Assembly: GCA_020724585.1 (NCBI GenBank)
Contig: DYGS01000001.1
Coordinates: forward strand, 2,893-66,892
DNA length: 64,000 nt
Direction of reading: 5' to 3'
Source of the DNA: Candidatus Microgenomatus sp.
GTDB taxonomy: Bacteria; Patescibacteriota; Microgenomatia; UBA8517
Each line of letters opens with the position of its first letter. The first letter of the stretch is position 1. A program made the translations under genes and the position numbers. Below are positions 2,032 to 64,000 of this stretch, piece by piece. A model generated the notes under the pieces. That model was not told where the DNA came from, did not search any database, and saw nothing but the letters and a program-made list of their open reading frames with translations.

Positions 2032-4467
2032 TTAGCATTCACTGTGTCCACAGGCGTGGCATTTGGCACAGCCTTCCTGGAAAACTAGTGCAGAAGCTCC
2101 ACAACCTGGGCAGATATCTCCCGCTTTTTCTTTAGTAGCTGTCAAAAACAAACTTTTCTGCTGTTCTTCTTCAAGATGTGGAACTGTAGCTACAACTTCA
2201 CTGGTTTCAGCTTCTTTTTGTTTTGTCGACCCAAAAACATTAGGACTGCTGTGGTAGCCATTTATACCAAAGTTGTAATGAACTGATATTGCGGCGGCTA
2301 CTGCATCAGGCAAAGACTTTATTTTTGTTGGCCCAAAGCCAATTGTCCTTCTGCCGCCAATCCCCGATAATTGTTCCGCAATCTCTCTTGCTTTATTTTT
2401 TGCAGATACATCTCCCCTAAACTTTAGAGCGGTGGAGATTGTCCTGCCCAATGCTTCAGCCATCGCCGCAACATCTGATCCCGCCTTACCAACATTCACA
2501 AAGACCTCTAAAGGTTCTCCAATACCATCCTCATTTATCGTCACAAAAGCAGTGCCAACAGGGGTGTTTAATCTATAAGTTGCTCCTTTAACCATATATG
2601 GCCTTTCTCTTAGAGGGTCCTTACTATCGCTAACTGTTTGTACTTCGGTCTCTGTATTTTTTGTCCCCAGATTTAATACCTGCGCATCTTTACATCCATC
2701 TCTAAAAACAGTTATGCCTTTGCAATCGCTATCATACGCCTGCAGGTACGCAGTTTTGATATCCTCAGGCGTTACATCATGCCTTAGATTGATGGTCTTG
2801 CTGACCGCATTCTCCGTGTATTTCTGGAAAGCATCCTGCATCCTGATATGCCAAATAGGATCAATTTCGTGAGCTGTTCCAAAAATTGCTTTTACATTGT
2901 TGGGGATTCCTTCAATATTCCTAATGACCCCCTTCTCAGATACTTTGTTCATTAAATCCTCCGACCAAAAACCCCTTTCTTTTGCAATTTTTTCAAAGGC
3001 GGGGTTAACAAAAGTTAGTTTTCTATCCAAATGTTTATCTTTAACTATGTGCTGAAATGCAATCGCGAAAAGAGGTTCTATTCCTGATGAAGCCCCGGCA
3101 ATTATTGATATTGTTCCAGTTGGGGCAATTGTTGTAACGGTTGCATTTCTTCTTTTTGCTTGGCCTTTATAGATAGATTTATCAAAAAGTGGAAAGGCTC
3201 CTCGAACTTTAGCTAGTTTCTGCGTTTCCGAAACTGCGGCCTCTTGAATTGTTTTCATCACTTTTTCCCCAAGTTTTAACGCTTCGTCGCTATCATATGG
3301 AATTCCAAGTTCTAAAAGCATATCAGCCCATCCACCAACTCCAAGACCGATTCTTCTTATGGCAAAGACGGTATTTCTGATTTGCTCAAGAGGATAAGGA
3401 TTAACTTCAATTACATTATCCAAAAACCTGGTAGATAATCTCGCCGTTTTTTCAAGCCCATCCCAATCAACCTGACCATCTTTAACAAAATATGTTAAAA
3501 ATATACTTCCCAGATTACACGCATCAAAAGGATATAAGGGTTGCTCCCCACAAGGATTAGTTGCTTCAATCGGCCCCAAAGTTGGAGTTGGGTTTGCAGT
3601 ACTTTTGTTTATTTTGTCTATAAAAACAAGCCCTGGGTCTCCAGTCTTCCAGGCTCCGTCTGCAATTTCATTAAACACTTCCCTTGCAGACTTCTTATCA
3701 ACAACTTCCCCTGTTTTGGGACTGATCAGATCATAATCTGTATCGTTTTTATAAGCCTCCATAAAGGCGTCTGTTATAGCAACTGAAATATTAAAATTTG
3801 TAATTCCCCCTCCATCCTTGCAGTGAATAAATTCCATAATATTGGGGTGATCAACTCTTAAAATACCCATATTTGCACCCCTTCTTTTGCCTCCTTGTTT
3901 TACTTCATTGGTTGCGGCGTCAAAAATTCGCATAAAAGAAACGGGGCCGGAAGCTGTGCCGCTTGAAGTTTTAACAATAGAACCACTTTCTCTTAAACGA
4001 CTGAATGCAAAACCCGTACCTCCGCCAGTTTTGTGAATGATTGCTTGATACTTTAAGGCATCAAAAATTCCCTCCATAGAGTCCTCAACCGGTAAAACAA
4101 AGCAGGCCGAATATTGCAAGCCATTATTCGTTCCTGCGTTCATTAATGTTGGTGAATTTGGCAAGAATTTACGGCTCACCATGAGTTCGTAAAAATCCCT
4201 TGCAGTATTCAATACACTTTTTTTGTTTCCTCCCCATCTTGCTTCGCTGGAAGCCACATCCCAAGCAACTCTCCAAACCATATCTTCAGGAGTTTCAATT
4301 GGATTTAAATTGCTATCCTTAACCAAGTATCTTTCTTCCAAAACCTTCAAAGCCTGCTCTGTCCAATCACCTTTGGGCAAATCCAAGGGTCTGGCAGGCA
4401 TTGGTCCGACCTTCTTTATCACTTCTTCCCTTATTTTTTGGTAAGACGGAGCTTTGTAGTGCTTCAT
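2032..4467 (-). CDS. nrdJ: Adenosylcobalamin-dependent ribonucleotide reductase, class II (monomeric NrdJ type) with C-terminal zinc ribbon
   Basis: 811 aa. RNR core motifs (NPCGEQPL, active-site cysteines) and a C-terminal CPGCG...CAKCHACG zinc finger. Confidence 0.85.
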   Translation of the reverse strand: MKHYKAPSYQKIREEVIKKVGPMPARPLDLPKGDWTEQALKVLEERYLVKDSNLNPIETPEDMVWRVAWDVASSEARWGGNKKSVLNTARDFYELMVSRKFLPNSPTLMNAGTNNGLQYSACFVLPVEDSMEGIFDALKYQAIIHKTGGGTGFAFSRLRESGSIVKTSSGTASGPVSFMRIFDAATNEVKQGGKRRGANMGILRVDHPNIMEFIHCKDGGGITNFNISVAITDAFMEAYKNDTDYDLISPKTGEVVDKKSAREVFNEIADGAWKTGDPGLVFIDKINKSTANPTPTLGPIEATNPCGEQPLYPFDACNLGSIFLTYFVKDGQVDWDGLEKTARLSTRFLDNVIEVNPYPLEQIRNTVFAIRRIGLGVGGWADMLLELGIPYDSDEALKLGEKVMKTIQEAAVSETQKLAKVRGAFPLFDKSIYKGQAKRRNATVTTIAPTGTISIIAGASSGIEPLFAIAFQHIVKDKHLDRKLTFVNPAFEKIAKERGFWSEDLMNKVSEKGVIRNIEGIPNNVKAIFGTAHEIDPIWHIRMQDAFQKYTENAVSKTINLRHDVTPEDIKTAYLQAYDSDCKGITVFRDGCKDAQVLNLGTKNTETEVQTVSDSKDPLRERPYMVKGATYRLNTPVGTAFVTINEDGIGEPLEVFVNVGKAGSDVAAMAEALGRTISTALKFRGDVSAKNKAREIAEQLSGIGGRRTIGFGPTKIKSLPDAVAAAISVHYNFGINGYHSSPNVFGSTKQKEAETSEVVATVPHLEEEQQKSLFLTATKEKAGDICPGCGASALVFQEGCAKCHACGHSEC

Positions 4468-4630
4468 ATATTTAATTGCATAATCTAATAACCTTTAATT
4501 TTTGTAAACTATCATTTTTTATGTAAAAATATATCAGCTCAGGCTCAAACCAGCTTCGTGAAAACTCCAGTTAAAGTTGCTCGCGGAAATTGTGAGGAGA
4601 TTTAAAAACTTATATGTATACCAAATTTAA

Positions 4631-5293
4631 TCAATCAAAAATGTTTTCAGGAGGAACTAGCCCTTTTGTCAACATCCTATCTCGTGTTTTTTTATAAACT
4701 TCCTTTGTTTTGTCAAGAGTCAAAACAATATGAGGTCTTAAGTCTTCAGGGGCGATAGGCATTATTTCCTGTTCGATCAACTCCCTATGTTTTAAAGATG
4801 AAGTTGCTAACTTCTCGTAAAAACCGTCTTCTGAATTATCGGACAGCTTTTCGGCCAATTCTAGATATTTTTCAGCTTTTGTTAAAGTTGATAACCCCAA
4901 ATCAGGTTTATTGGACTCGAAAAGTTTTAAAGACGACATCAACCGCTTGTCTGCAAATAATAAATTTAGTTCAGCTTTTTTTTGAGGTTTTAAACTAATC
5001 GCAAGCCACGCCTTATCTCTTATCACTTTCGCATACCAGAAAGGGCTATCAGGATGGATCTTTCCTGGATACGCAAACTCATAATCAATTTTCTTGGCTT
5101 TTTCGCTCTCTACTTTTTCTGATAAAACAACGGGGGTATAGGCATACCTAATAGAAGATGTAGACAACATAGTTGCCGAAAGTATTAAAAAGGCTAACAA
5201 CATCGTACCCAATCCTGTAGCAATTTTTTCTCTCATCGCTTCCCTATTTCGTCGGGTACCTTTTATTCTATACCAACTAGTCAATCCGTGCAA
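4631..5293 (-). CDS. hypothetical membrane-anchored protein
   Basis: N-terminal TM helix (LGTMLLAFLILSATML). No recognisable domain. Confidence 0.4.
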   Translation of the reverse strand: MHGLTSWYRIKGTRRNREAMREKIATGLGTMLLAFLILSATMLSTSSIRYAYTPVVLSEKVESEKAKKIDYEFAYPGKIHPDSPFWYAKVIRDKAWLAISLKPQKKAELNLLFADKRLMSSLKLFESNKPDLGLSTLTKAEKYLELAEKLSDNSEDGFYEKLATSSLKHRELIEQEIMPIAPEDLRPHIVLTLDKTKEVYKKTRDRMLTKGLVPPENIFD

Positions 5294-5320
5294 ATAAAAT
5301 TAACTTAAAAAATTCTCCTT

Positions 5321-5959
5321 TCAGCGAAAGAGAACAATTGGCCACTGCCAAAGCACATGAAGAAGTATTGGAGAAACTATATTCTTAGTTCGGGCATAAA
5401 CAAATGCGCTCCCAATACCAAAAAGGGTTGTTAAGAATAAATAAACCAAGGCCGCTGATATGTCAAGTTTCCAAACAAAAAATGTAATAGGTACATGGAT
5501 TAGCGCCCAAAAAACCGAGGTCAAGAGGTTTGCTCCCCACTCGTTTTTCAAAAATTTTAAAACTCTTGTAAATATATAGCCCCTAAATGTTATCTCCTCT
5601 GAAAAAGCGGTTATAAACGAAAGACCGAGCGATGTTATAAACGGCAAACTGCCAATATTTGCATTCAAATTAAATTCGCCTCCATATTTGATAAAATTAA
5701 TTATTAACGCTTCAAGAACAAAAAACATACCTAACCCAAGGGCGTAATAAACTGCAGGAAATAAATTTTTATAAGATATACCAATTGAAGAAAGACCTTC
5801 ACCTTCTTTCTTGAGTAGAATAAAAACGGGAATAAGCCAAACTATTGGTTTTATAAAAATTTCTTCAACAGTTTCCGGCAGTTGGAATAAAAACCTATAA
5901 AACCCCCAAACTATTAAAAGATAGACTGCCAAGTAAATCGCCCGTTTAAAATTTAGCAT
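5321..5959 (-). CDS. CPBP family intramembrane metalloprotease (CAAX protease-like)
   Basis: Polytopic, with EEITFRGYIF (EExxxR motif) and conserved His in later helices. Confidence 0.7.
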   Translation of the reverse strand: MLNFKRAIYLAVYLLIVWGFYRFLFQLPETVEEIFIKPIVWLIPVFILLKKEGEGLSSIGISYKNLFPAVYYALGLGMFFVLEALIINFIKYGGEFNLNANIGSLPFITSLGLSFITAFSEEITFRGYIFTRVLKFLKNEWGANLLTSVFWALIHVPITFFVWKLDISAALVYLFLTTLFGIGSAFVYARTKNIVSPILLHVLWQWPIVLFR

Positions 5960-5965
5960 TTTATC

Positions 5966-6475
5966 TTACTTAATTTTACACCCTTCAAAGGCTTTATCCA
6001 TAGCACTAATTATTAGCTTTACTTTTTCTATCGATTCTTCAAAAGAAATTGCCTTTTTCTCCTCTGGGAACCAATGAAATACGAGATTCCTTCCTTGCGT
6101 CCAAGCGTTCCAAAGTTCTTTTGCCAGTTCGTCTCCATTGCAATAATTTACTAACTTATCATAAACATATGAACCATTTCTATATTTTTTCTCTATAAAT
6201 GGGTTTAAAGCCTTGCCAATTCTAAACCTTTTGCCAAAATAATCCTCTTTGGAAATCATTCCAAGATCAAAAAAAAGTTTTTTTAAAAAACCTTCGTATG
6301 CTTTGGCTGCAGGGAAAACTACAAAAGAATAATCATGGAAGACTTTACTGCCTTGAGGCAAATCTCCTCCCCAACTTTTAACTGTATTTATCAAAAATTC
6401 GGACGCCACTAAAAGCTCTTGTAAATCTGGCTCTATGTACTCCCACCATGTTTTTTTCTCCAAATCCAAATCCAT
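5966..6475 (-). CDS. hypothetical protein
   Basis: ORF of 169 aa in an operon-like arrangement. No recognised motif. Confidence 0.35.
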   Translation of the reverse strand: MDLDLEKKTWWEYIEPDLQELLVASEFLINTVKSWGGDLPQGSKVFHDYSFVVFPAAKAYEGFLKKLFFDLGMISKEDYFGKRFRIGKALNPFIEKKYRNGSYVYDKLVNYCNGDELAKELWNAWTQGRNLVFHWFPEEKKAISFEESIEKVKLIISAMDKAFEGCKIK

Positions 6476-17738: not shown

Positions 17739-18734
17739 TCATGCGTTCTTTTTGGCAATTAACTTTTTAATGGATTTAATAATATCTTCTTTTGCTAAAC
17801 CATATTCTTTAAAAAGCTCATCTGGTTTTCCTGATTGGCCAAATCTGTCTTGGACCCCAAGCATCTCCATATGCACAGGAAAATTTTTAGAAAGTGTTTG
17901 GGATACAACTGATCCTAGTCCTCCTATTACTTGATGTTCCTCAATTGTCATAATGGCATTAGTAAGTTTCGCATATCTGATAACCACTTCTTCATCGAGG
18001 GGCTTTATTGTGTGCATATTAATAACTATCGTTTCTATTCCATTTTTTTCAAGCTCTTTATAAGCTAACAGTGCCTGATAAACCATTAATCCATAGGCAA
18101 TAATTGCCACCTCGGGCTTTTTACTTTCAGTTAAAATATTTGCTTTCCCGATTTTAAATGGCGATTTTTCAGTCGTATAAACAGGACTTTCAATTCTTGG
18201 AAGTCTCATGTAGAAGGGCTTATCAATTTTGGCCATTTCTAGCGTTGCCTTTTTTGCTTCATTGTAATCACTTGGAGCAACTACATTCATACTTGGTATA
18301 ACTTGGGCAAGAGCAATATCTTCTAAACCCTGATGTGTTACGCCGTAATGACCAATATTAAGTCCGCTTTGTGCCCCAATTATTTTTACAGGATAACCAT
18401 CGATTCCAATTGTTGTTCTAATTTGTTCCCAATTCCTGCCTGGAGAAAATATCGCATAGGATGTTGCAAACGGAATCTTGCCGAAATTTGCAAGGCCTGA
18501 AGCAATTGTAACTAGGTTTTGTTCTGCAACTCCAACTTCAATAAATCTTTCAGGAAATTTATCTGCAAAGTAGTTAACTTTTGTAGATTCTTTTAAATCT
18601 GCAGTTAATGCAACTATTCTTTCATCTTGTTCACCTGCCTCCAATAACCCATGTCCAAAACCATCCCGCATGAGTTTCATTTCAATCTTTTTAGTAAATA
18701 TGTCAGGATTTAGATTTAATTTAGCATTTAGCAT
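17739..18734 (-). CDS. Transketolase, C-terminal subunit (split transketolase)
   Basis: Pyrimidine-binding and C-terminal domain motifs (EQNLVTIASGLA, GAQSGLNIGHYGVTHQ). Confidence 0.8.
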   Translation of the reverse strand: MLNAKLNLNPDIFTKKIEMKLMRDGFGHGLLEAGEQDERIVALTADLKESTKVNYFADKFPERFIEVGVAEQNLVTIASGLANFGKIPFATSYAIFSPGRNWEQIRTTIGIDGYPVKIIGAQSGLNIGHYGVTHQGLEDIALAQVIPSMNVVAPSDYNEAKKATLEMAKIDKPFYMRLPRIESPVYTTEKSPFKIGKANILTESKKPEVAIIAYGLMVYQALLAYKELEKNGIETIVINMHTIKPLDEEVVIRYAKLTNAIMTIEEHQVIGGLGSVVSQTLSKNFPVHMEMLGVQDRFGQSGKPDELFKEYGLAKEDIIKSIKKLIAKKNA

Positions 18735-18744
18735 TTGTAATTTG

Positions 18745-20271: not shown

Positions 20272-21387
20272 TCAAGAAACTTTGTGTAAAAGCGTAATTG
20301 GATCAGATGGCACATGACTGCCTTCCAAGTTTCTACCCACTCTAATTACTTGTTCTACTAGTCTATTTGCATATCCCCACTCGTTGTCATACCAAGCAAA
20401 AACCTTAACCATATTTCCCGCAACGACTTGCGTTAATGGCAAATCAACAATTGCGGACTCACTTCTTCCTACTATATCACTTGATACCAAAAATCCCTCA
20501 GAAACTGCTAATATTCCCTTATAAATGGGATTTTCTACTGCTTCTTTAAAGGCATTATTAACTTCTTCTACGCTTACTTCTTTTTTCAAGAGAAATGTAA
20601 AGTCAGTAATTGATCCTGTTGCAACAGGCACTCTTAAACTCATACCATCAAAGAGGCCTTTTAAATCAGGTATTGTTTCAGTTACGGCAATGGCCGCTCC
20701 TGTTGTTGTTGGAACTATATTCACCGCTGCAGCTCGGGCTCGGCGAAGATCTTTATGTGATCCATCTTGCAAATTTTGGTCATCAGTATAACTATGAATT
20801 GTTGTCATCATGGCTTTTTCTATACCAAATTTAGCTTGCATAACTGCTGCAACAGGAGCCACGCAGTTTGTAGTACATGATGCATTTGAAATTACTGTTG
20901 CGTCTCGCAGTCCTGAGCCTGTCGAAGGATTCTCGTTTACACCTAAGACATAAGTGCCAACATTACCACCTTTACTGGGAGCTGAAATAATTACCCTCTT
21001 AGCTCCACCAACAGCATGTTTTTTTGCATCCTCTTCTGAGGTAAATCTTCCAGTTGATTCAATAACCACATCAACTCCATATTTGCTCCATGGGATTAAA
21101 CTTGGATCTTTTTGGGCTAAAACTGGAACATCTACATTGCGTTCTGGAATTAACAAACTTCCTATTTTTGTATCTTCGTTTTTTTCTAAGTACTCTGTAC
21201 TCTGTACTTTGTACTGGTATTCCCGATACATAGTGTCGTAGTTAACCAAATGCCCCCAACCATGAACATCCATTGATCCTGAAGTATTAATTGCACCAAT
21301 CTTAATTTCATCTAGGTGCTTGGATACAGCAATCCTGAAGGCTAATCTTCCTATTCTTCCAAAACCATTGATTCCAACTTTTACCAT
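20272..21387 (-). CDS. gap: Glyceraldehyde-3-phosphate dehydrogenase, type I
   Basis: NGFGRIGR, SNASCTTN and WYDNEWGY motifs. Confidence 0.9.
   Translation of the reverse strand: MVKVGINGFGRIGRLAFRIAVSKHLDEIKIGAINTSGSMDVHGWGHLVNYDTMYREYQYKVQSTEYLEKNEDTKIGSLLIPERNVDVPVLAQKDPSLIPWSKYGVDVVIESTGRFTSEEDAKKHAVGGAKRVIISAPSKGGNVGTYVLGVNENPSTGSGLRDATVISNASCTTNCVAPVAAVMQAKFGIEKAMMTTIHSYTDDQNLQDGSHKDLRRARAAAVNIVPTTTGAAIAVTETIPDLKGLFDGMSLRVPVATGSITDFTFLLKKEVSVEEVNNAFKEAVENPIYKGILAVSEGFLVSSDIVGRSESAIVDLPLTQVVAGNMVKVFAWYDNEWGYANRLVEQVIRVGRNLEGSHVPSDPITLLHKVS
21186..21217 (+). repeat. GTAC-rich short repeat inside the gap coding sequence (encodes QYKVQSTEYL on the minus strand)
   Basis: ctaagtactctgtactctgtactttgtactgg. 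Same length as the corresponding GAPDH segment in other species, so this is a replacement rather than an insertion. Confidence 0.6.
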
Positions 21388-41816: not shown

Positions 41817-41833
41817 TCTGATATATAATACTA

Positions 41834-41864
41834 TGTACTAAGTACTTTGTACTATGTACTGTAT
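41834..41864 (+). repeat. GTAC-rich short repeat (atgtactaagtactttgtactatgtactgta)
   Basis: 26/27 identical to 63886-63912. Member of a dispersed repeat family found at 7 or more loci. Confidence 0.7.
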
Positions 41865-42296: not shown

Positions 42297-42351
42297 GTTA
42301 AATTGAAAATTGAAAATTGTTAATTGAAAATTCCAAGCGTAGCTTGGACAT

Positions 42352-42733
42352 GGGGATGACCGGTTTCGACGGGAAGCTCTTTTAAAATAAGCAAGCCAAG
42401 TTTGATATAAACTTGTCAAAATGTATCAAAACTTAAAAGCAAAACAAATTTTTGCTTCTGTTAAGCCATACGCTGATATGCAATATGCATATCTTACTGT
42501 AAAGGCTTAAACAGCATTCTTGTATTTGGATTCCGACTGAATTTCAAGGGTGTCAACCAAATCGGAAGTAGTTTTTTATTCTTAGTTGTGGATAGAAAAC
42601 GAAATAATAACAACTTTACTTTTCATCATCCTGACAATTGGTTAGATAAAAAGGACATACAATAAATTGTCTAAGCTTGTAGAAATTTTTAAAAATGTAT
42701 TTTCGGATGAGGGTTCGATTCCCTCCATCTCCA
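42352..42733 (+). ncRNA. ssrA: tmRNA (SsrA), about 382 nt
   Basis: 5' end GGGGATGACCGGTTTCGACGGG (tRNA-like acceptor/D region). 3' end GAGGGTTCGATTCCCTCCATCTCCA (T-arm plus acceptor 3' strand pairing with the 5' end). Directly downstream of smpB. Confidence 0.8.
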
Positions 42734-42800
42734 CTCGCATTCGCTCGTTCCGATTTCAGGAATCGATAGCGCAAGTTATTGTGCTCCGTGTTTTGCACGC

Positions 42801-54201: not shown

Positions 54202-55757
54202 TATTCATTTCTAACACGATATTGCAACGCTTCAGCAACATGATTTGGAAGAATCCGATTGGTTCGGCTTCGCTCACCACCCTCAGCTACGCTGAGGTCT
54301 GCAATTGTTTGGGAAACTTTTATCAGTCTAAAATAAGTTCTGGCTGATAGATTATATGTATTTACAGCTTGTTTAAGTAAAACTAAAGCTTCCGGAGCAA
54401 TATCAACAAATTCCTTAATGTGTTTATTTTTCATGTTGGCATTGGTATAAAATGACAAGCCTTTAAATCTTTTATTCTGAATTTCTCTAGCCTTAACCAC
54501 TTCTTCTCTTATTTGTTTTGAGTTTTTAGCTATTCGCTTTTCGCTATTCGCTATCAGCTTATTAACATCGACAGCTGGTACATTCAAATGCAAGTCAATT
54601 CTATCCATTAAAGGTCCAGAAAGTCTTGATTGATAATTCATAACCATTCTTGGTGTACATATGCATTCTCTTTTGGGATCACCCAAGTAGCCACAAGGGC
54701 AAGGGTTAGCGGCCGCAATTAACATAAAACTTGCAGGAAAATTAACACTTCCTGCAATTCTGGTTATTGAAACCTTTCTATCTTCCAAAGGTTGTCTTAA
54801 GGCTTCCAAGGTTCCTCTTGAAAACTCAGGAAACTCATCCAAAAACAAAACTCCATTATGGGCAAGCGATATTTCCCCCGGATGTGGGTTTGTTCCTCCT
54901 CCAATTAAGCCTATTAAACTGGTTGTGTGGTGTGCAGTTCTAAATGGACGATTTCGAATTAACCCCTCTCCTGCAGGAATAAGCCCTGAAACAGAATAAA
55001 TTTTAGTAACTTCTAATGCTTCATCTTCGTTTAAAGGTGGCAATATACCTGCCGTGGCCCGAGCCAGCATTGTTTTACCTGCCCCAGGAGTTCCAACTAA
55101 AAATATATTGTGTCCTCCCGCAGCTGCGATTGTCATTGCTCTTTTTGCCGACTCTTGGCCAATAATTTCTGCAAAGTCAAACTCGACAGAACAGTACTCA
55201 GTACTTAGTACAGAGTACTTAGAACTTTTGATTTTCTCAATTTTCTTCAATCCATTTAAATGTGCAATTAATTCTGAGAGTGATTTAACAGGATAAACAT
55301 CAATTCCAGATAAAACTGATGCTTCATTGGCAGATTCACTTGGGACAAAAACACTTTTAATCCCCTTTTGTTTTGCAGCCAGTCCTAAAAGAAAAACTCC
55401 TTTGGTATGTCTTAGTCCTCCATCAAGTGAAAGTTCACCATAGAAAAAACTTTTTTCGATCGGTAACTTAACAAGTTCCATTGAAGCCAAAATTCCAATT
55501 GCGATAGGAAGATCATACAAAGATCCCTCTTTGGGAATATCAGCAGGAGCAAGATTAACTACAATTTTCTGATTTGGAAAATCAATGTCTGAATTTAAAA
55601 TTGCAGTTTTTACTCTTTCTTTTGCTTCTTCTATAGATTTATTGGGAAGTCCAATTATTGAAAATCCGGGGAATCCTTTTTTGAAAACATTAACTTCAAC
55701 CTCAATTAAATTTGGAGTTAATCCAAAATGCGACGCCGAAAGTATCTTCGTGAGCAT
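54201..55757 (-). CDS. comM: YifB/ComM-family Mg-chelatase-like AAA+ ATPase (competence protein ComM)
   Basis: N-terminal Lon-like domain, Walker A GTPGAGKTMLA, and the C-terminal ChlI-like region. Confidence 0.85.
   Translation of the reverse strand: MLTKILSASHFGLTPNLIEVEVNVFKKGFPGFSIIGLPNKSIEEAKERVKTAILNSDIDFPNQKIVVNLAPADIPKEGSLYDLPIAIGILASMELVKLPIEKSFFYGELSLDGGLRHTKGVFLLGLAAKQKGIKSVFVPSESANEASVLSGIDVYPVKSLSELIAHLNGLKKIEKIKSSKYSVLSTEYCSVEFDFAEIIGQESAKRAMTIAAAGGHNIFLVGTPGAGKTMLARATAGILPPLNEDEALEVTKIYSVSGLIPAGEGLIRNRPFRTAHHTTSLIGLIGGGTNPHPGEISLAHNGVLFLDEFPEFSRGTLEALRQPLEDRKVSITRIAGSVNFPASFMLIAAANPCPCGYLGDPKRECICTPRMVMNYQSRLSGPLMDRIDLHLNVPAVDVNKLIANSEKRIAKNSKQIREEVVKAREIQNKRFKGLSFYTNANMKNKHIKEFVDIAPEALVLLKQAVNTYNLSARTYFRLIKVSQTIADLSVAEGGERSRTNRILPNHVAEALQYRVRNE
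55191..55225 (+). repeat. GTAC-rich short repeat inside comM coding sequence (encodes ...SKYSVLSTEYCS... on the minus strand)
   Basis: acagtactcagtacttagtacagagtacttagaac shares k-mers (agtacagagtac, gtacttagtac) with intergenic copies at 62075, 63346 and 63875. Confidence 0.6.
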
Positions 55758-55818: not shown

Positions 55819-55855
55819 ACAGTATACTGTTCCTAGTGTACTAGGAACTAGGAAC
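55819..55855 (+). promoter_or_regulatory. tandem palindromic operator-like sites upstream of the HTH-PRTase gene
   Basis: Perfect 12-bp palindrome acagtatactgt (55819-55830), then a 9-bp inverted repeat gttcctagt-gt-actaggaac (55829-55848) and an extra taggaac half-site. They lie 6-40 nt upstream of the ATG at 55861. Confidence 0.5.
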
Positions 55856-55860
55856 TTTTT

Positions 55861-56832
55861 ATGACTACGAAGCTAAAGATATTACAATATTTGAATCGAA
55901 AGGGCGAAACAACAGGTAATGAGCTCTCAAACCATTTAGGTCTATCTGACAGGGCAATTCGAAAACAGTTGAAAAACTTGATTGAAGAAGGAAAAATTTC
56001 GAAAATAGGAATTCCTCCCAAAGTCTATTATTATTTAAGTGAGAGGAAAATGACAAAAGATACTCCATATTTAGATAAAAATACTGAAGAATTTATTAAT
56101 ACCAACTATTTATACATTTCTCCAATTGGCGAAAGACTTGATGGAGTAGCGGGATTCGTAGAATGGTGCAAAAAAACAAACCAATCCGTAGAAAAAACTG
56201 CAAAAAACTATGTTGAAACAATTAATAAATATTACAAGTTCAAAAGGCATGGGTTGATAAATGGAACATTAAAATTAAAAAATACATTTCAAAGAACTGG
56301 CCTTGAAAAACTTTATTACTTAGATTTTTATTCAATTGACAGGTTTGGGAAAACCAAACTTGGACAGATGCTTTTGTATGCAAAACAAAGTCAAAACAAA
56401 GCATTAATGAAAGAGATATCTACAAATATTCGTCCAAAAATTATGAGGTTAATTAAAAAACTTAATATCACAAGCATTGGGTTTATTCCCCCAACTGTTA
56501 AAAGACAATTCCAATTTATGAAAGAGTTGCAAAAAAATCTTAGACTTGATCAAAATATAATTACAATTTCAAAAGCAAAAATACCTTACATGACACCGCA
56601 AAAAACACTAACCAAACTTGAGGATAGAATAGAAAATGCAAAAAAAACAATAATCGTGGAGGATAATAATAAACATAAAAATATTCTTTTAATTGACGAC
56701 GCAGTTGGTTCTGGAGCAACATTAAATGAAACTGCTTTACAAATCAAAAGAAAAAAACTTTGTACAGGTAAAATCTACGGACTAGCAATAGTCGGTAGTT
56801 TTAAAGGTTTTGATGTAATCAGCGAAGTGTAA
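55861..56832 (+). CDS. winged-helix HTH domain protein fused to phosphoribosyltransferase (ComF-like PRTase) domain
   Basis: N-terminal ETTGNELSNHLGLSDRAIRKQLKNLIEEGKI (wHTH) and C-terminal ILLIDDAVGSGATLNE PRTase motif. Confidence 0.55.
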   Translation: MTTKLKILQYLNRKGETTGNELSNHLGLSDRAIRKQLKNLIEEGKISKIGIPPKVYYYLSERKMTKDTPYLDKNTEEFINTNYLYISPIGERLDGVAGFVEWCKKTNQSVEKTAKNYVETINKYYKFKRHGLINGTLKLKNTFQRTGLEKLYYLDFYSIDRFGKTKLGQMLLYAKQSQNKALMKEISTNIRPKIMRLIKKLNITSIGFIPPTVKRQFQFMKELQKNLRLDQNIITISKAKIPYMTPQKTLTKLEDRIENAKKTIIVEDNNKHKNILLIDDAVGSGATLNETALQIKRKKLCTGKIYGLAIVGSFKGFDVISEV

Positions 56833-56862: not shown

Positions 56863-57267
56863 ATGCCTAACCTCAATACAACTAATAATTTAAAGCTAAG
56901 AACTAAGAGCTTAAAATCAAATAGCCTCAGAGATAGAACCTTTGACTTTTCTATTCAAATAATTAAATTAATTTCTAATTTTCCAAACAAAACTGTTTAT
57001 TGGAAGATTGGAGATCAATTATTGCGATCAGGAACAAGTATCGGTGCAAATGTTACAGAAGCTCAGGGCTCATTATCTAAAAAAGAATTTATTAGCTTTT
57101 ACCATATAGCTTTAAAAAGCGCCAAAGAAACTGTTTATTGGCTTGAGATACTGCAAAAGTCTAACTTGATTAAAGAATCAGAATTATCTTGGTTTATTGA
57201 TGAATCAAACCAATTAGTTAAAATGCTTACATCGAGTATACTTACATTAAAGAGAAATTTGAATTAA
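56863..57267 (+). CDS. four-helix-bundle protein (TIGR02436-type, 23S rRNA intervening-sequence protein family)
   Basis: GDQLLRSGTSIGANVTEAQGSLSKKEFISFYHIALKSAKETVYWLEIL signature. Confidence 0.7.
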   Translation: MPNLNTTNNLKLRTKSLKSNSLRDRTFDFSIQIIKLISNFPNKTVYWKIGDQLLRSGTSIGANVTEAQGSLSKKEFISFYHIALKSAKETVYWLEILQKSNLIKESELSWFIDESNQLVKMLTSSILTLKRNLN

Positions 57268-61040: not shown

Positions 61041-61210
61041 GCCAAACTTTGTTTATTATTTTATTCACTTTGTGAAGGGTGAGGAGGAAAGAGGGAAAAG
61101 GAATGAGGAAAGAGAGAAAACAGAACAGAGGAAAGAGAAGTGAGGAGAGAGTTAACCACAAAAACTCATTCCTACTTACTCATTCCTGTTTCCTGTTCAC
61201 TCATTCCTAA
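61041..61210. repeat. homopurine (GA-rich) tract followed by its imperfect reverse complement (cctcattcc repeats)
   Basis: ggaatgagg occurs in the purine arm, and cctcattcc occurs three times in the pyrimidine arm, so the region can fold into a long imperfect hairpin or H-DNA. Confidence 0.55.
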
Positions 61211-61573
61211 TTACTTACTTACGCTCTTTATAAGCCCAGCCAACATTCTAGATATCTCCTCATTTCTAGCCACGAACTCCTTTACTTTGTTTCTGTCAAA
61301 TTCTTTCATCTCTGCAATTATTTCCAACCAACAACCGGTTTCGTAATTTGAGCCCCTTGCAATATCTAAAAATAGTTTAAAACTTTTCTTGGAGTTTCTT
61401 CCGTAACCTTCTGCAATATTTGCAGGAATTGATCCAACCGCACGAAATAATTGATTTAAAAGAAACTGCTTTGGAATAGGCAATTTATAATCTGAAAAGT
61501 GTTGAATAATATCAACTGTTAATCGTTTTGACTTTTGATATACAAGAAGTTCTTTGTGTGAAGTTAAACTCAT
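61211..61573 (-). CDS. four-helix-bundle protein (TIGR02436-type), second copy
   Basis: LVYQKSKRLTVDI...AVGSIPANIAEGYGRNSKKSFKLFLDIARGSNYETGCWLEI. Confidence 0.7.
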   Translation of the reverse strand: MSLTSHKELLVYQKSKRLTVDIIQHFSDYKLPIPKQFLLNQLFRAVGSIPANIAEGYGRNSKKSFKLFLDIARGSNYETGCWLEIIAEMKEFDRNKVKEFVARNEEISRMLAGLIKSVSK

Positions 61574-61599
61574 ATCTTAATCATACACTTTCCTCATTC

Positions 61600-62040
61600 C
61601 TGTCTCCTCTTTTCTATCTAGGAATAGCTTAGAAATCTAATATCTAATTTAATCTTATGTTCTTTAGAAAATATTTTTTTAATTCACTCCAATTAAATTC
61701 AACTAACATATTTGGATCAACATCATTTTTTGCATCACCAAAATAAATCAGTGCTTTTTTTAGGTATTAGTTACAAACCGAGAATTTTTAAGGTTTAATT
61801 TTATATATATGTTGCCAAAAATTTTTAGATTTTTTTGAAAGTCTACCATTTGAAATTACATTTTTAATTAACTCCCTATCAAAATTTTTATTAGGTCAAT
61901 CAATTGCCTTGGCATTTCCTAATTCTAGTATTCTATTAATAAAATACTTGTTTTTTAGTTACATCTACTTTTTTTGGATCAATGTCCCAAAAATATTTGT
62001 GAAGTGTTTTTAGCAGCATCATGTTCATATTATACTATTT
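61600..62040 (-). pseudogene. possible decayed remnants of DUF4143-type ATPase paralog(s)
   Basis: Minus-strand fragments translate to ALIYFGDAKNDVDPNMLVEFNW and LLKTLHKYFWDIDPKKVDV, resembling the K-x-YF-x-D motif region (KLYFLDTGL) of the adjacent intact ATPase. No intact ORF. Confidence 0.3.
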
Positions 62041-62043
62041 TAC

Positions 62044-62088
62044 TTGTGAAAATGTCGGTCTAGTTGCACCAAAAGCAGTACAGAGTAC
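62044..62088 (+). repeat. 45-bp direct repeat A flanking the AAA ATPase gene (ttgtgaaaatgtcggtctagttgcaccaaaagcagtacagagtac)
   Basis: 41/45 identical to 63314-63358. Confidence 0.75.
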
Positions 62089-62118
62089 AAAGAAAGCATA
62101 GAGAAACAATTGTTATAT

Positions 62119-63267
62119 CTATATTTGTGTATACGGAAGATATTGGACGCCTCCAGTAACTTTTAGGGGCTCTTTGATTAAGGAAATTATTGTTTTAGAT
62201 TTAAAATCTTTTGATTTTTTCTCAAAATAATTCATATTTTTTTCAAATTCTGTATCTGTCTTTGCCGCAATTTTAAACTCATACATATGAAGCCCGTTGT
62301 CATGAATAAGTAAGTCAACTTCGTGGCCTTCTTTGTCTCTTAAATAATATAAATATGGTATTTTGCCTTGGTTTATATATTTTTTGATAAATTCACAAAC
62401 CAAGTGGGTTTCATAAAAAGCTCCAGACATTGCTCCTGCTCTCATGGTGTCTGGGCTATTCCACCTAGTTAGAAATGAGGCCAGTCCTGTATCTAAAAAG
62501 TATAATTTCGGTGCTTTAATTATTCTTTTTGTTATATTTGCAAAATATGGACGGAGCAAATAAATTTGTTTTGTAGCTTCTAAAATTGAAAGCCATTCAC
62601 TTGCCGTAGTAATTGGAATTCCTGCATCTCTTGCCATGTCGGAAATATTTAAAATCTGGGCGGTCCTTGCTGCACAAACTTCAATAAAACGGTTAAATTC
62701 TGATATTTTTGTTATGCCGAAAATATCAGACAAGTCTCTGTCTAAATAAGTTTGTATATAAGAATTGAAAAAAGTATTTCTGTCTGGTTTATTTTTTGAT
62801 TGAAAAATTGGAAATCCCCCTTCAAAGATTTCTTCGAAAAGTGATTTTATTTTAAGCTTCTCTTTCTGAGATAGACCCAATAAGTCTAGGATTGCAACTC
62901 TCCCAGCAAGTGACTCTTGAATGTTTTTAATGAGATTAAACTGTTGAGATCCTGTAATCCAGAATTGTCCATTTTTATCTGATCTGTCAACTATTTCCTT
63001 TATCACTGAGAAAAGTTCGGGTGCATATTGTACTTCATCAATAATTACTGGTAATTTTAATTGCTCTATAAAAAGTTTTGGATCATCTTTAGCGCTTCTC
63101 CTTTGGACTACATCATCAAGTGTTACATATGTTCTATTCTCATTTTCTGAAAGTTTTTTTAATAATGTAGTCTTACCAACCTGCCTTGGCCCACCAAGAT
63201 ATACGACCTTAAAAGTTCTACTTGCTCGCAAGACAACTTCTTCTAGCAGCCTAGGTATATAGTTCAT
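62119..63267 (-). CDS. AAA-family ATPase with DUF4143-like C-terminal domain
   Basis: Walker A GGPRQVGKTT, Walker B VIIDEVQY, KLYFLDTGL motif. Confidence 0.7.
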   Translation of the reverse strand: MNYIPRLLEEVVLRASRTFKVVYLGGPRQVGKTTLLKKLSENENRTYVTLDDVVQRRSAKDDPKLFIEQLKLPVIIDEVQYAPELFSVIKEIVDRSDKNGQFWITGSQQFNLIKNIQESLAGRVAILDLLGLSQKEKLKIKSLFEEIFEGGFPIFQSKNKPDRNTFFNSYIQTYLDRDLSDIFGITKISEFNRFIEVCAARTAQILNISDMARDAGIPITTASEWLSILEATKQIYLLRPYFANITKRIIKAPKLYFLDTGLASFLTRWNSPDTMRAGAMSGAFYETHLVCEFIKKYINQGKIPYLYYLRDKEGHEVDLLIHDNGLHMYEFKIAAKTDTEFEKNMNYFEKKSKDFKSKTIISLIKEPLKVTGGVQYLPYTQI

Positions 63268-63313
63268 ATATGACTATATTACATTGACAGCGTAAATTAG
63301 TCAAGCACCAATT

Positions 63314-63358
63314 TTGTGAAAATGTTGATCTAGTTGCACCATAAACAGTACAGAGTAC
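63314..63358 (+). repeat. 45-bp direct repeat B flanking the AAA ATPase gene
   Basis: ttgtgaaaatgttgatctagttgcaccataaacagtacagagtac matches copy A. Confidence 0.75.
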
Positions 63359-63420
63359 TTAGTACAAAGTACATAAATATCACTGTGAAACATTAAACAA
63401 GTTGCAACAAAAGCTTCACA

Positions 63421-63490
63421 TAGTACGATAAAGGTAGTACCTAGTACAAAGTACACAGTACATAATACACAGTACATAGTACATAGTACA
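63421..63490 (+). repeat. GTAC-rich microsatellite-like tract (agtac/catagtaca units)
   Basis: tagtacaaagtacacagtacataatacacagtacatagtacatagtacatag. The track ORF 63301-63513 is just its translation. Confidence 0.7.
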
Positions 63491-63511
63491 TAGAAAAAAC
63501 AAACACAAAAC

Positions 63512-63886
63512 ATGGTTAATAGTTATAAAGATTTAACTGTATTTCAAAAATCAAAAGCTTTAACTATTGACGTAATCAAATACTTTAAGAAAAATAAAGT
63601 AAATAAATCAAATGACTTTTTACTTAATCAAGTTTTTAGATCTGTAAGTTCAGTTGGAGCTAATTTGGCTGAAGGATTTGGAAGAAACTATAGTCAAAAT
63701 TTTAAACAATTTGTTGGAATTGCTAGAGGTTCATCTTTCGAAACAGAATATTGGCTTGAGATATTATTAGATTTAAATGAATTTGATCAAAAAATTATTA
63801 AAGAATTCATTGAAAGAAATACAGAAATAAACAAAATGTTAACAGGATTAATGAAAAATATGAAAGGAGAATCGACTAAGTACTAA
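63512..63886 (+). CDS. four-helix-bundle protein (TIGR02436-type), third copy
   Basis: LTVFQKSKALTIDV...SVSSVGANLAEGFGRNYSQNFKQFVGIARGSSFETEYWLEIL. Confidence 0.7.
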   Translation: MVNSYKDLTVFQKSKALTIDVIKYFKKNKVNKSNDFLLNQVFRSVSSVGANLAEGFGRNYSQNFKQFVGIARGSSFETEYWLEILLDLNEFDQKIIKEFIERNTEINKMLTGLMKNMKGESTKY

Positions 63887-63906
63887 GTACTCTGTACTAT
63901 GTACTG
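63875..63906 (+). repeat. GTAC-rich short repeat overlapping the stop of the third four-helix-bundle gene
   Basis: actaagtactaagtactctgtactatgtactg. Shares a 16-mer (ctaagtactctgtact) with the copy inside gap (21186-21201) and 26/27 nt with 41836-41863. Confidence 0.7.
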
Positions 63907-64000
63907 CGTCTTCGACGCATGGAACAACATCCAATACCGCAACAGATAAGTTCATATCAGTTTAAGCTGGTTGGGGATATGACTTTAAAACAGTTTTTCC

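Follow-up and report, generated by a model that had tools for sequence, protein, structure and literature searches.

The window analysed in this study is a 64-kb stretch (64,000 nucleotides, nt) of a 644-kb metagenomic contig, DYGS01000001.1, from a small genome of the candidate phyla radiation (CPR)/Patescibacteria, of the Microgenomates type; the closest named homologs belong to Woesebacteria, Shapirobacteria and other Patescibacteria. The block of interest lies within a type IV secretion-like cluster adjoining dnaN/dnaA, which contains pilin-like genes, genes encoding a 552-aa membrane protein and a 689-aa protein, and PrgI-like, TraC-like and VirB4-like genes. It comprises two genes encoding small four-helix-bundle (4HB) proteins, hb1 and hb2, an ATPase gene and two copies of a 45-bp direct repeat, A and B (Table 1). 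A third 4HB gene, hb3, is found upstream, and the window contains exactly these three. Sequence identity is 52% between hb1 and hb2, and about 35% between hb3 and either of them. An earlier note on this DNA described the block as a composite unit, with the ATPase gene bounded by the repeats and the two inverted 4HB genes as terminal modules, and proposed a selfish, mobile or defence-related module. The four open reading frames (ORFs) in that description are real, the third 4HB gene upstream was confirmed, and the family labels were right: PF05635/TIGR02436 for the three small proteins, and AAA_14 and DUF4143 for the ATPase.

Table 1. Features of the block and its surroundings, with positions in the window; L numbers denote related loci (T4SS, type IV secretion system; TRF, Tandem Repeats Finder).
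Feature	Positions	Strand	Description
hb3	56863..57267	+	4HB gene, 134 aa; directly 5' of the 552-aa membrane protein gene, co-directional
Truncated module left end (CACTTTGTGAA)	61066..61076	+	Close to where the 689-aa gene starts; the hb1 cassette interrupts the module; compare the L014 empty site '...ttattccacTTTGTGAAAATGTTGG'
hb1 distal 3' arm	61084..61151	-	GAGGAAA-type heptamers on the + strand, pyrimidine-rich on the hb1 coding strand; TRF period 7, RNA fold
hb1	61211..61573	-	4HB gene, 120 aa
hb1 5' arm	61588..61615	-	Purine-rich on the coding strand
DUF6922 pseudogene	61788..62028	-	Frameshifted; three-frame translation, frame-corrected peptide matches Pfam DUF6922 with E 1.7e-11
Repeat A	62044..62088	+	Module copy (TGTGAAAA...GTTGCACC) fused to GTAC heptamers; 5' of the DUF6922 pseudogene, 30 nt past the ATPase stop
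ATPase	62119..63267	-	AAA_14 + DUF4143, 382 aa; PADLOC candidate defence family PDC-S01
ATPase promoter-like site	63276..63304	-	TTGACT-17-TAATAT; sequence conserved in ATPase-bearing relatives
Repeat B	63314..63358	+	Ancestral half-module (TTGTGAAAATG...GTTGCACCA) and first GTAC heptamers
Module C	63382..63429	+	Full promoter/operator-like module of the hb2-PrgI operon; 24-copy alignment
hb2 5' arm	63435..63511	+	(AGTACnn)n array, decaying units up to the start codon; TRF, period-7 scan
hb2	63512..63886	+	4HB gene, 124 aa; conserved at the head of a T4SS-like operon
hb2 3' arm	63875..63909	+	(nnGTACT)n array overlapping the stop codon, complementary to the 5' arm
GC hairpin GCGTC-TTC-GACGC	63906..63918	+	Abuts the ATG (63919) of the PrgI-like gene

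Both 4HB genes of the block are enclosed by inverted arrays of heptamers. The GTAC microsatellite reported in the earlier note is present, and corresponds to a period-7 array of TAGTACA (8.4 copies, 63435-63493, according to TRF) within the hb2 5' arm. The hb2 arms are 35 nt long, 86% complementary, and fold with a 19-bp continuous helix that encloses the ORF (z-score of -5.3). Arm scores, calculated as the best ungapped inverted match between the 100-nt flanks of a gene against shuffles, reach a z of 10.9 for hb2 and 8.3 for hb1, whose 5' arm pairs with positions 61084-61112 over 28 nt, also with 86% complementarity. Cassettes differ in the sequence of their heptamers, but the heptamer type stays with the ORF: GTAC-type arms are kept in all hb2 orthologs despite saturated synonymous sites, with persistence of the GTAC cores, and GA-rich arms are kept in the hb1 orthologs. 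The number of units in the hb2 5' arm differs between close relatives in a slippage-like manner. Among 14 distinct orthologous loci, 9 have the GC hairpin downstream of hb2 with compensatory changes (orthologous positions in L008-L024); the hairpin is absent in L017 and L025-L028.

Inverted arms are also found around 4HB genes of distant organisms. Ten distant metagenome 4HB cassettes show them, each built from a different heptamer (CTAGnnn, TAGGGAC, AGGGTAA, TAGCGGT, TAGGCAn, CGAAnnn and others), with duplex z-scores of -3 to -7.7. In addition, we scored 78 4HB loci from named genomes of Patescibacteria, Bacteroidota, Clostridia, Planctomycetota, Acidobacteriota, Desulfobacterota, Gammaproteobacteria and others. 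The median arm score was 13 (z 5.8), with z>3 in 68% of the loci, in contrast to a median of 6 and z>3 in 3% at control positions offset by 700 nt, and z>3 in 3.7% of 216 neighbouring ORFs. Self-similarity of the flanks is specific to lag 7 (113 of 202 flanks vs 0-15 at lags 5, 6, 8 and 9). Arms of four units are the most frequent. About 11 nt separate the end of the 5' array from the ATG, and about 2 nt separate the stop codon from the start of the 3' array. The cassettes are mostly located between same-strand genes, with gaps of about 45 nt, and the purine-richer arm is the 5' arm in 57 of the 78 loci. Four 4HB cassettes within 5.5 kb, interleaved with other genes, were observed in L038 (SDBT01061346.1, 1-4284); the three that were checked have their own inverted arms, of the TAGCGGT type in two near-identical copies and of the TAGCTnn type in the third.

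The proteins encoded by hb1, hb2 and hb3 score 92-96 bits against PF05635 (cut-off 33.8) and 96-108 bits against TIGR02436 (cut-off 24). They show the GxxRxxxSxxxNxxE motif (PMC3936711), and R43, S47, N51 and E54 are invariant in an alignment of 46 sequences. The structure prediction suggested in the earlier note was run on hb2, and the AlphaFold2 monomer model is a confident four-helix bundle (predicted local distance difference test, pLDDT, of 90.6). Foldseek placed this model closest to 2RLD and 2GSC (template modelling score, TM, of 0.74-0.90), followed by Avd and ribonucleoprotein structures of diversity-generating retroelements (DGR); against Avd, the TM is about 0.7-0.8 with 6-10% identity in the structural alignment. 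The sequence match to 2RLD has an E of 3.6e-11, and five chains are listed in both crystal entries, 2RLD and 2GSC. Because both genes are under purifying selection, with dN/dS of 0.09-0.18 for hb2 (synonymous sites saturated) and 0.11-0.23 for hb1, their proteins are predicted to be functional. By analogy with its structural relative Avd, the 4HB protein probably binds nucleic acid. No PADLOC model matched the 4HB proteins.

Comparison with related loci showed that the components occur independently at one locus, because relatives carry hb2, the ATPase and hb1 separately; the block is not present or absent as one unit. Orthologs of hb2 (65-90% identical) were found in about 20 distinct related loci (L008-L031) that lack the ATPase and hb1 at this spot. 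The gene is immediately 5' of the PrgI-like gene in every related locus with enough sequence, and the VirB4 encoded there is 80-90% identical to that of the window. Only about 200 bp lie between the homolog of the 689-aa gene and hb2 in L014, L016, L011, L023 and L024, with neither ATPase nor hb1. In L008, the spot contains a Gp49/helix-turn-helix (HTH) toxin-antitoxin pair and small ORFs, and the DUF4143 ATPase of this locus (24% identical) is located elsewhere. Orthologs of the ATPase (77-89% identical) were found in L122, L124 and L126, divergent from PrgI at the same promoter and without hb2. The layout of L126 is as in the window: the homolog of the 689-aa gene, an hb1 pseudogene, toxin-antitoxin genes, a DUF4143 fragment, the ATPase and PrgI. 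Orthologs of hb1 are found in the same hot spot with varying orientation, at 69-76% identity in L127, L129 and L130, and 69-86% when the L126 pseudogene is included. In L129, positions 4411-6322 encode a VirB4-like ATPase with an intein that carries a LAGLIDADG homing endonuclease domain.

VirB4 identity to the window is 90% in L008, 86% in L122, 83% in L014 and 81% in L011. The genomes without hb2 are thus nested among those with hb2, and the absence of hb2 is therefore most simply explained as loss; judged from these comparisons, most relatives appear to have inherited the hb2 cassette vertically, and in some it is cleanly missing. Accessory genes at the hot spot are the ATPase and toxin-antitoxin remnants in the window, and Gp49/HTH, MNT/HEPN, BrnT/CopG and HicAB in relatives. 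The hot spot at the secretion-operon promoter accumulates toxin-antitoxin genes, a PDC-S01-type ATPase and 4HB cassettes. Of the selfish, mobile or defence module proposed in the earlier note, there remain an ATPase of a candidate defence family and a spot that gathers toxin-antitoxin and defence-type genes, but these are not one unit. Likewise, the 4HB genes are discrete cassettes prone to gain and loss, but as individual elements with their own arms and not as the ends of a composite.

The 45-bp repeats A and B are real; they share 41 of 45 positions (91%). The window has no copy besides these two, and the number expected by chance is 0. Their similarity exceeds 45 bp, since positions 62023-62043 and 63262-63282 are 81% identical, and reaches the ATGAAC start of the leftward gene beside each copy. 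A third, weaker repeat was recognised at 63382-63426, in module C. This module shows TGTGAAA (63384-63390), a -35-like TTGCAA (63402-63407), a 16-nt spacer containing TTCACA and a -10-like TACGAT (63424-63429), and the consensus of 24 copies from relatives is TGTGAAA, about 11 nt, TTG(C/A)A(C/A/T), 16 nt with (C/T)TTCAC, and TAnnnT. A -35/-10-like pair separated by 16 nt can thus be recognised in the module, flanked by the inverted half-sites TGTGAA and TTCACA; read on the minus strand, the motif is TTTTCACAAA. The half-sites (63384-63420, and in all module copies of the relatives) bracket the -35-like box about 27 nt apart. They look like an operator, and TTCACA may double as the -35 of divergent genes. 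In L122 and L126, 6 nt separate the end of the module from the ATG of PrgI, and therefore a leaderless-type mRNA is implied. A generic terminator scan of the region gave no terminators.

Repeat B is present in L014, L016, L008 and L018, all without the ATPase at the spot, where it belongs to a conserved stretch that precedes hb2 and PrgI; this contradicts its reading as a boundary of one cassette. A promoter-like match on the minus strand overlaps repeat A, with its first hexamer inside A (from 62058) and TATAAT beyond the left end (62029). Every leftward gene inserted at the hot spot, in the window and in L008, has a module copy on its 5' side. On these sequence comparisons, A, B and C are paralogous copies of the PrgI-operon module, of which B and C are ancestral and A is a younger local duplicate, and the conservation of the module suggests promoter function. 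In our reading, a compact bidirectional promoter region was duplicated as genes accreted, and the 45-bp repeats are the result. The repeat is essentially unrelated to the ATPase, and the ATPase and the 4HB genes are essentially independent of each other in relatives.

The ATPase shows the AAA_14 domain at residues 19-136 and DUF4143 at residues 176-333, and matches PDC-S01 of PADLOC over its full length (PDLC04790, E 1.3e-100). By homology, it can be classified as an ordinary member of this known candidate defence family, at a conserved hot spot. PDC-S01 is an abundant candidate defence family with an ATPase and a PD-(D/E)XK nuclease domain, whose defence activity is unvalidated (PMC12988326, PMC3424549). 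The window ATPase resembles it in its COG1373 architecture (AAA_14 and DUF4143 PD-(D/E)XK) and in being a single-gene unit among toxin-antitoxin genes, but differs in having stayed long at a single locus in several relatives, unlike a roaming island gene. The decayed ATPase-like fragments which the earlier note saw in the 440-bp ORF-free stretch were not found by tblastn with the ATPase against the window; instead, this stretch holds the DUF6922 pseudogene, from which a second decayed stretch continues to about 61620.

Taken together, the block is best explained, with a probability of about 0.6, as three independent residents of one intergenic hot spot, in which the 4HB genes are stem-loop cassettes, similar to the intervening sequences (IVS) of rRNA genes, set in mRNA leaders and intercistronic gaps. 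The hot spot would be located between divergent transcription units of the type IV secretion-like cluster, and the conserved module would drive the operon of the PrgI-like, TraC-like and VirB4-like genes. Gene hb2 would be a discrete cassette of about 480 bp (5' arm, ORF, 3' arm and GC hairpin) placed exactly between the -10-like box and the start codon of PrgI, and hb1 another cassette, belonging to a sister orthogroup, that has GA-rich arms of its own and is placed 5' of the 689-aa gene. Their mutual inversion follows from their location on the two divergent sides of a shared intergenic region, where hb2 is the first gene of the PrgI operon and hb1 precedes the leftward 689-aa gene, outside the promoter of the latter. 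Each cassette would be transcribed with its host transcript, that of hb2 from module C through hb2 into PrgI. The arms, typically of four heptamers each, may form an RNA stem of about 20-30 bp around the 4HB ORF, which RNase III would cut, by analogy with the S23p IVS of 23S rRNA. After this cleavage, the 4HB message and the message of the downstream operon would be separate molecules, the latter with a protective or stabilising 5' hairpin.

The precedent for these steps is the 23S rRNA IVS of Coxiella, in which a 28-bp stem, cleaved by RNase III, holds the S23p ORF in its loop. Two to three GACAGAT heptamers precede this ORF, and the cleavage falls at the first of them (PMC4990558). Because the Coxiella IVS has both a stem and heptamers (PMC4990558), the arms can be regarded, by analogy, as shared with the rRNA-borne members. 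S23p IVS of Coxiella and Leptospira (PMC4990558) and the window cassettes have in common a protein of the same family in the loop, an element of about 430-480 nt, a terminal stem of about 28 bp, and tandem heptamers upstream of the ORF whose number varies between strains. However, the window cassettes are positioned in an mRNA leader or between protein-coding genes, not inside 16S or 23S rRNA; an Rfam scan of the window gave only tmRNA and tRNAs, and no known RNA family at the locus. Purifying selection acts on the window ORFs, in contrast to the Coxiella ORF, which is in decay and apparently unexpressed. Cleavage by RNase III was shown in Coxiella, and for the window cassettes would apply by analogy.

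Several observations weigh against this explanation. The promoter, the co-transcription and the RNase III cleavage are steps that we infer. A generic sigma-70 scan does not single out module C, and the promoter-like hits of the region are at chance level. The putative promoter of the 689-aa gene is located downstream of hb1, so that hb1 is not obviously part of the leader of that gene. Gene hb3 is without inverted arms and has no 3' arm (flank complementarity with z of -0.5); its first ~24 codons (MPNLNTTNNLKLRTKSLKSNSL, 56863-56935) are a degenerate nnCTAAG heptamer array, and the reading frame seems to have taken in what was once a 5' arm. About one third of the 4HB loci have no detectable arms, some of them being truncated ORFs. 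GTAC-type arrays are also found away from 4HB genes, even inside coding regions, and are thus not exclusively cassette arms. Finally, the stem mismatches show no excess of G:U over A:C (70 vs 63, p 0.6), and therefore a DNA-level role, or arms that are a by-product of array generation, would also be compatible.

Such a role at the DNA level is the first alternative: the arms would be terminal inverted repeats of a small transposable or cruciform cassette, moved in trans or by the 4HB protein, and the RNA stem would be incidental. We consider this unlikely, even though it would agree with the lack of G:U bias, with the presence/absence polymorphism of hb2, hb1 and hb3 at orthologous sites (the hb3 position is occupied by a 4HB gene or a remnant in L126 and L008), with the variable orientation of the hb1 orthologs, with an arm type that travels with the ORF, and with the multiplicity of cassettes in the genomes of some organisms (in L038, four within 5.5 kb). 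Comparison of filled and empty hb2 sites shows no target-site duplication, no catalytic activity is known in the 4HB family, and hb2 has stayed at one site through divergence past synonymous saturation. The experimentally shown precedent for this architecture, moreover, is RNA processing (PMC4990558).

A further alternative concerns the ATPase segment, which might have entered, accompanied or not by its promoter, by Campbell-type or site-specific recombination at the module, with A and B as attL/attR-like duplicates of the recombination site and TTTGTGAAAA as a recombination core that all cassettes of the hot spot would reuse. Direct module repeats do flank the ATPase, two independent inserts in L008 are each behind TTATTCCACTTTGTGAAAA and GTAC heptamers, and the segment from hb1 to the pseudogene is bracketed by TTTGTGAA (61069) and TTGTGAAAATG (62044). 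However, there is no recombinase gene within 10 kb on either side, and in L122, L124 and L126 the module is found on the 5' side of the ATPase only, where the conserved junction of ATPase, promoter and module suggests vertical descent over repeated integration. As the motif doubles as a -35-like TTCACA for the leftward genes, duplication of a promoter under selection explains the repeats equally well, and we regard entry by recombination as improbable.

The composite element of the earlier note, with inverted 4HB terminal modules and direct repeats delimiting an ATPase cargo, is contradicted by the separation of its parts in relatives and can be given very little credence: the geometry in the window fits it, with direct repeats around the ATPase and inverted 4HB genes outside, but hb1 and hb2 are only 52% identical with unrelated arms, each is conserved in its own orthogroup at the locus, no integrase or transposase was found among the called genes within +-10 kb, and hb2, the ATPase and repeat B are each met without the supposed partner (hb2 without ATPase, ATPase without hb2, repeat B without ATPase). 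The likeness to an integron or a composite transposon lies in several co-oriented accessory genes stacked at one site, each behind the same short sequence; the difference lies in the lack of an integrase or transposase, in a repeat that is the host operon's own promoter-like module, and in flanking 4HB genes too dissimilar to be terminal modules. Equally remote is a reading of the 4HB genes as Avd accessory genes of (decayed) DGR, since, although PF05635 is homologous to Avd (PMC10053308), with the same four-helix-bundle fold, and Avd is a pentamer that binds reverse transcriptase and RNA (PDB 4DWL, 8UB7), no reverse transcriptase (RVT) domain was found among the called genes within +-10 kb, no template/variable repeats were found, the flanking repeats being 7-nt arrays and copies of the promoter module, the S23p-type 2RLD and 2GSC match best in both sequence and structure, and sequence similarity to Avd is negligible.

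Heptamer arrays occur elsewhere in the window as well. Arrays of period 7 are strongly over-represented in it, with 12 at lag 7 vs 0-1 at lags 5, 6 and 8-11, and were observed at 44-72, 18719-18736, 21190-21215, 41829-41860, 42300-42332, 54515-54554, 55192-55227 and 55840-55856. Several are far from any 4HB gene: GTAC-type arrays lie just 5' of smpB and inside ORFs, and an AAATTGA array lies between smpB and the tmRNA gene. A GTAC-type array within a yifB/comM-like gene is translated into the peptide SVLSTEY. Two GTAC-type arrays are located just upstream of dnaA in L014 (20059-20150), a relative with hb2. Orphan GTAC arrays were found only in genomes with hb2 (6 in ~150 kb vs 0 in ~64 kb of six loci without hb2), a small sample that gives only a hint. 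The tmRNA gene itself (42352-42736, Rfam 136 bits) is directly 3' of smpB, and its predicted tag is AKQIFASVKPYADMQYAYLTVKA.

Among the neighbouring genes, a contig search with the 689-aa protein retrieved no relatives. The gene at 55861-56832, upstream of hb3, encodes a protein with HTH and phosphoribosyltransferase (PRTase) domains that matches the PADLOC models of PsyrT and of retron-type PRTase effectors (E 2e-18). It is probably a further accessory, defence-type insertion in the secretion cluster, because no homolog was detected in the related loci compared.

Heptanucleotide repeats have been described in several bacteria. Arrays of about four units are over-represented in Xanthomonas (GGGAATC) and Nostoc; convergent inverted pairs are frequent in Xanthomonas, with 70 convergent pairs in X. 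campestris, and Xanthomonas repeat #15 extends over the start of XCC0516, whose 4HB protein has been crystallised (PMC4692102). TAACTGA heptamers are found in Beggiatoa, with arrays in Beggiatoaceae, Bacteroidetes and cyanobacteria (PMC4679880), and four-heptamer elements in Geobacter (PMC2700814). These repeats, like the cyanobacterial short tandemly repeated repetitive (STRR) sequences, agree with the 4HB arms in their period of 7, their approximately four units, their mostly intergenic position near start or stop codons and their variable copy number. They differ in being genome-wide arrays of one heptamer, whereas each 4HB cassette has its own heptamer and two arms that enclose an ORF. The papers on heptamer repeats (PMC4692102, PMC4679880, PMC2700814) do not connect the arrays with PF05635 genes, and the literature searched contains no explicit link between the two beyond the single-organism note on the Coxiella IVS, although database comments or other papers may hold it. 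Genes annotated as 23S_rRNA_IVP have been reported inside cas operons, e.g., between cmr genes (PMC3936711), and in rRNA insertions of CPR bacteria (PMC11270868).

On a broader and quite tentative reading, PF05635/TIGR02436 genes with their arms would be one widespread class of stem-loop cassettes, of which the rRNA IVS were the first-noticed members and which would have spread into mRNA leaders and intercistronic gaps of many phyla, and a 4HB pentamer would recognise nucleic acid made of heptamer repeats, acting on its own arms and on orphan arrays. About four to five units per arm would then correspond to five subunits, in a TRAP- or Avd-like manner, and the orphan arrays of this genome would be the GTAC-type arrays 5' of smpB and within coding regions. 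If true, this would give a source and a function for the excess of heptanucleotide repeats in bacteria (STRR, GGGAATC, TAACTGA and the Geobacter H4 elements).

For the locus itself, what was claimed as a composite unit, mobile or defence-related, reduces to the ordinary build-up of accessory genes at a hot spot around a promoter. For the family, the rule that S23p/4HB genes across phyla are enclosed by inverted arrays of about four heptamers, with a cassette-specific sequence, was not found in the searchable literature. It links three puzzles: the role of the 4HB/S23p protein, the origin of rRNA intervening sequences and the over-representation of period 7 in bacteria. The arms are a practical annotation signature for delimiting 4HB cassettes, and may explain the presence of 23S_rRNA_IVP genes within unrelated operons, such as those between cmr genes.

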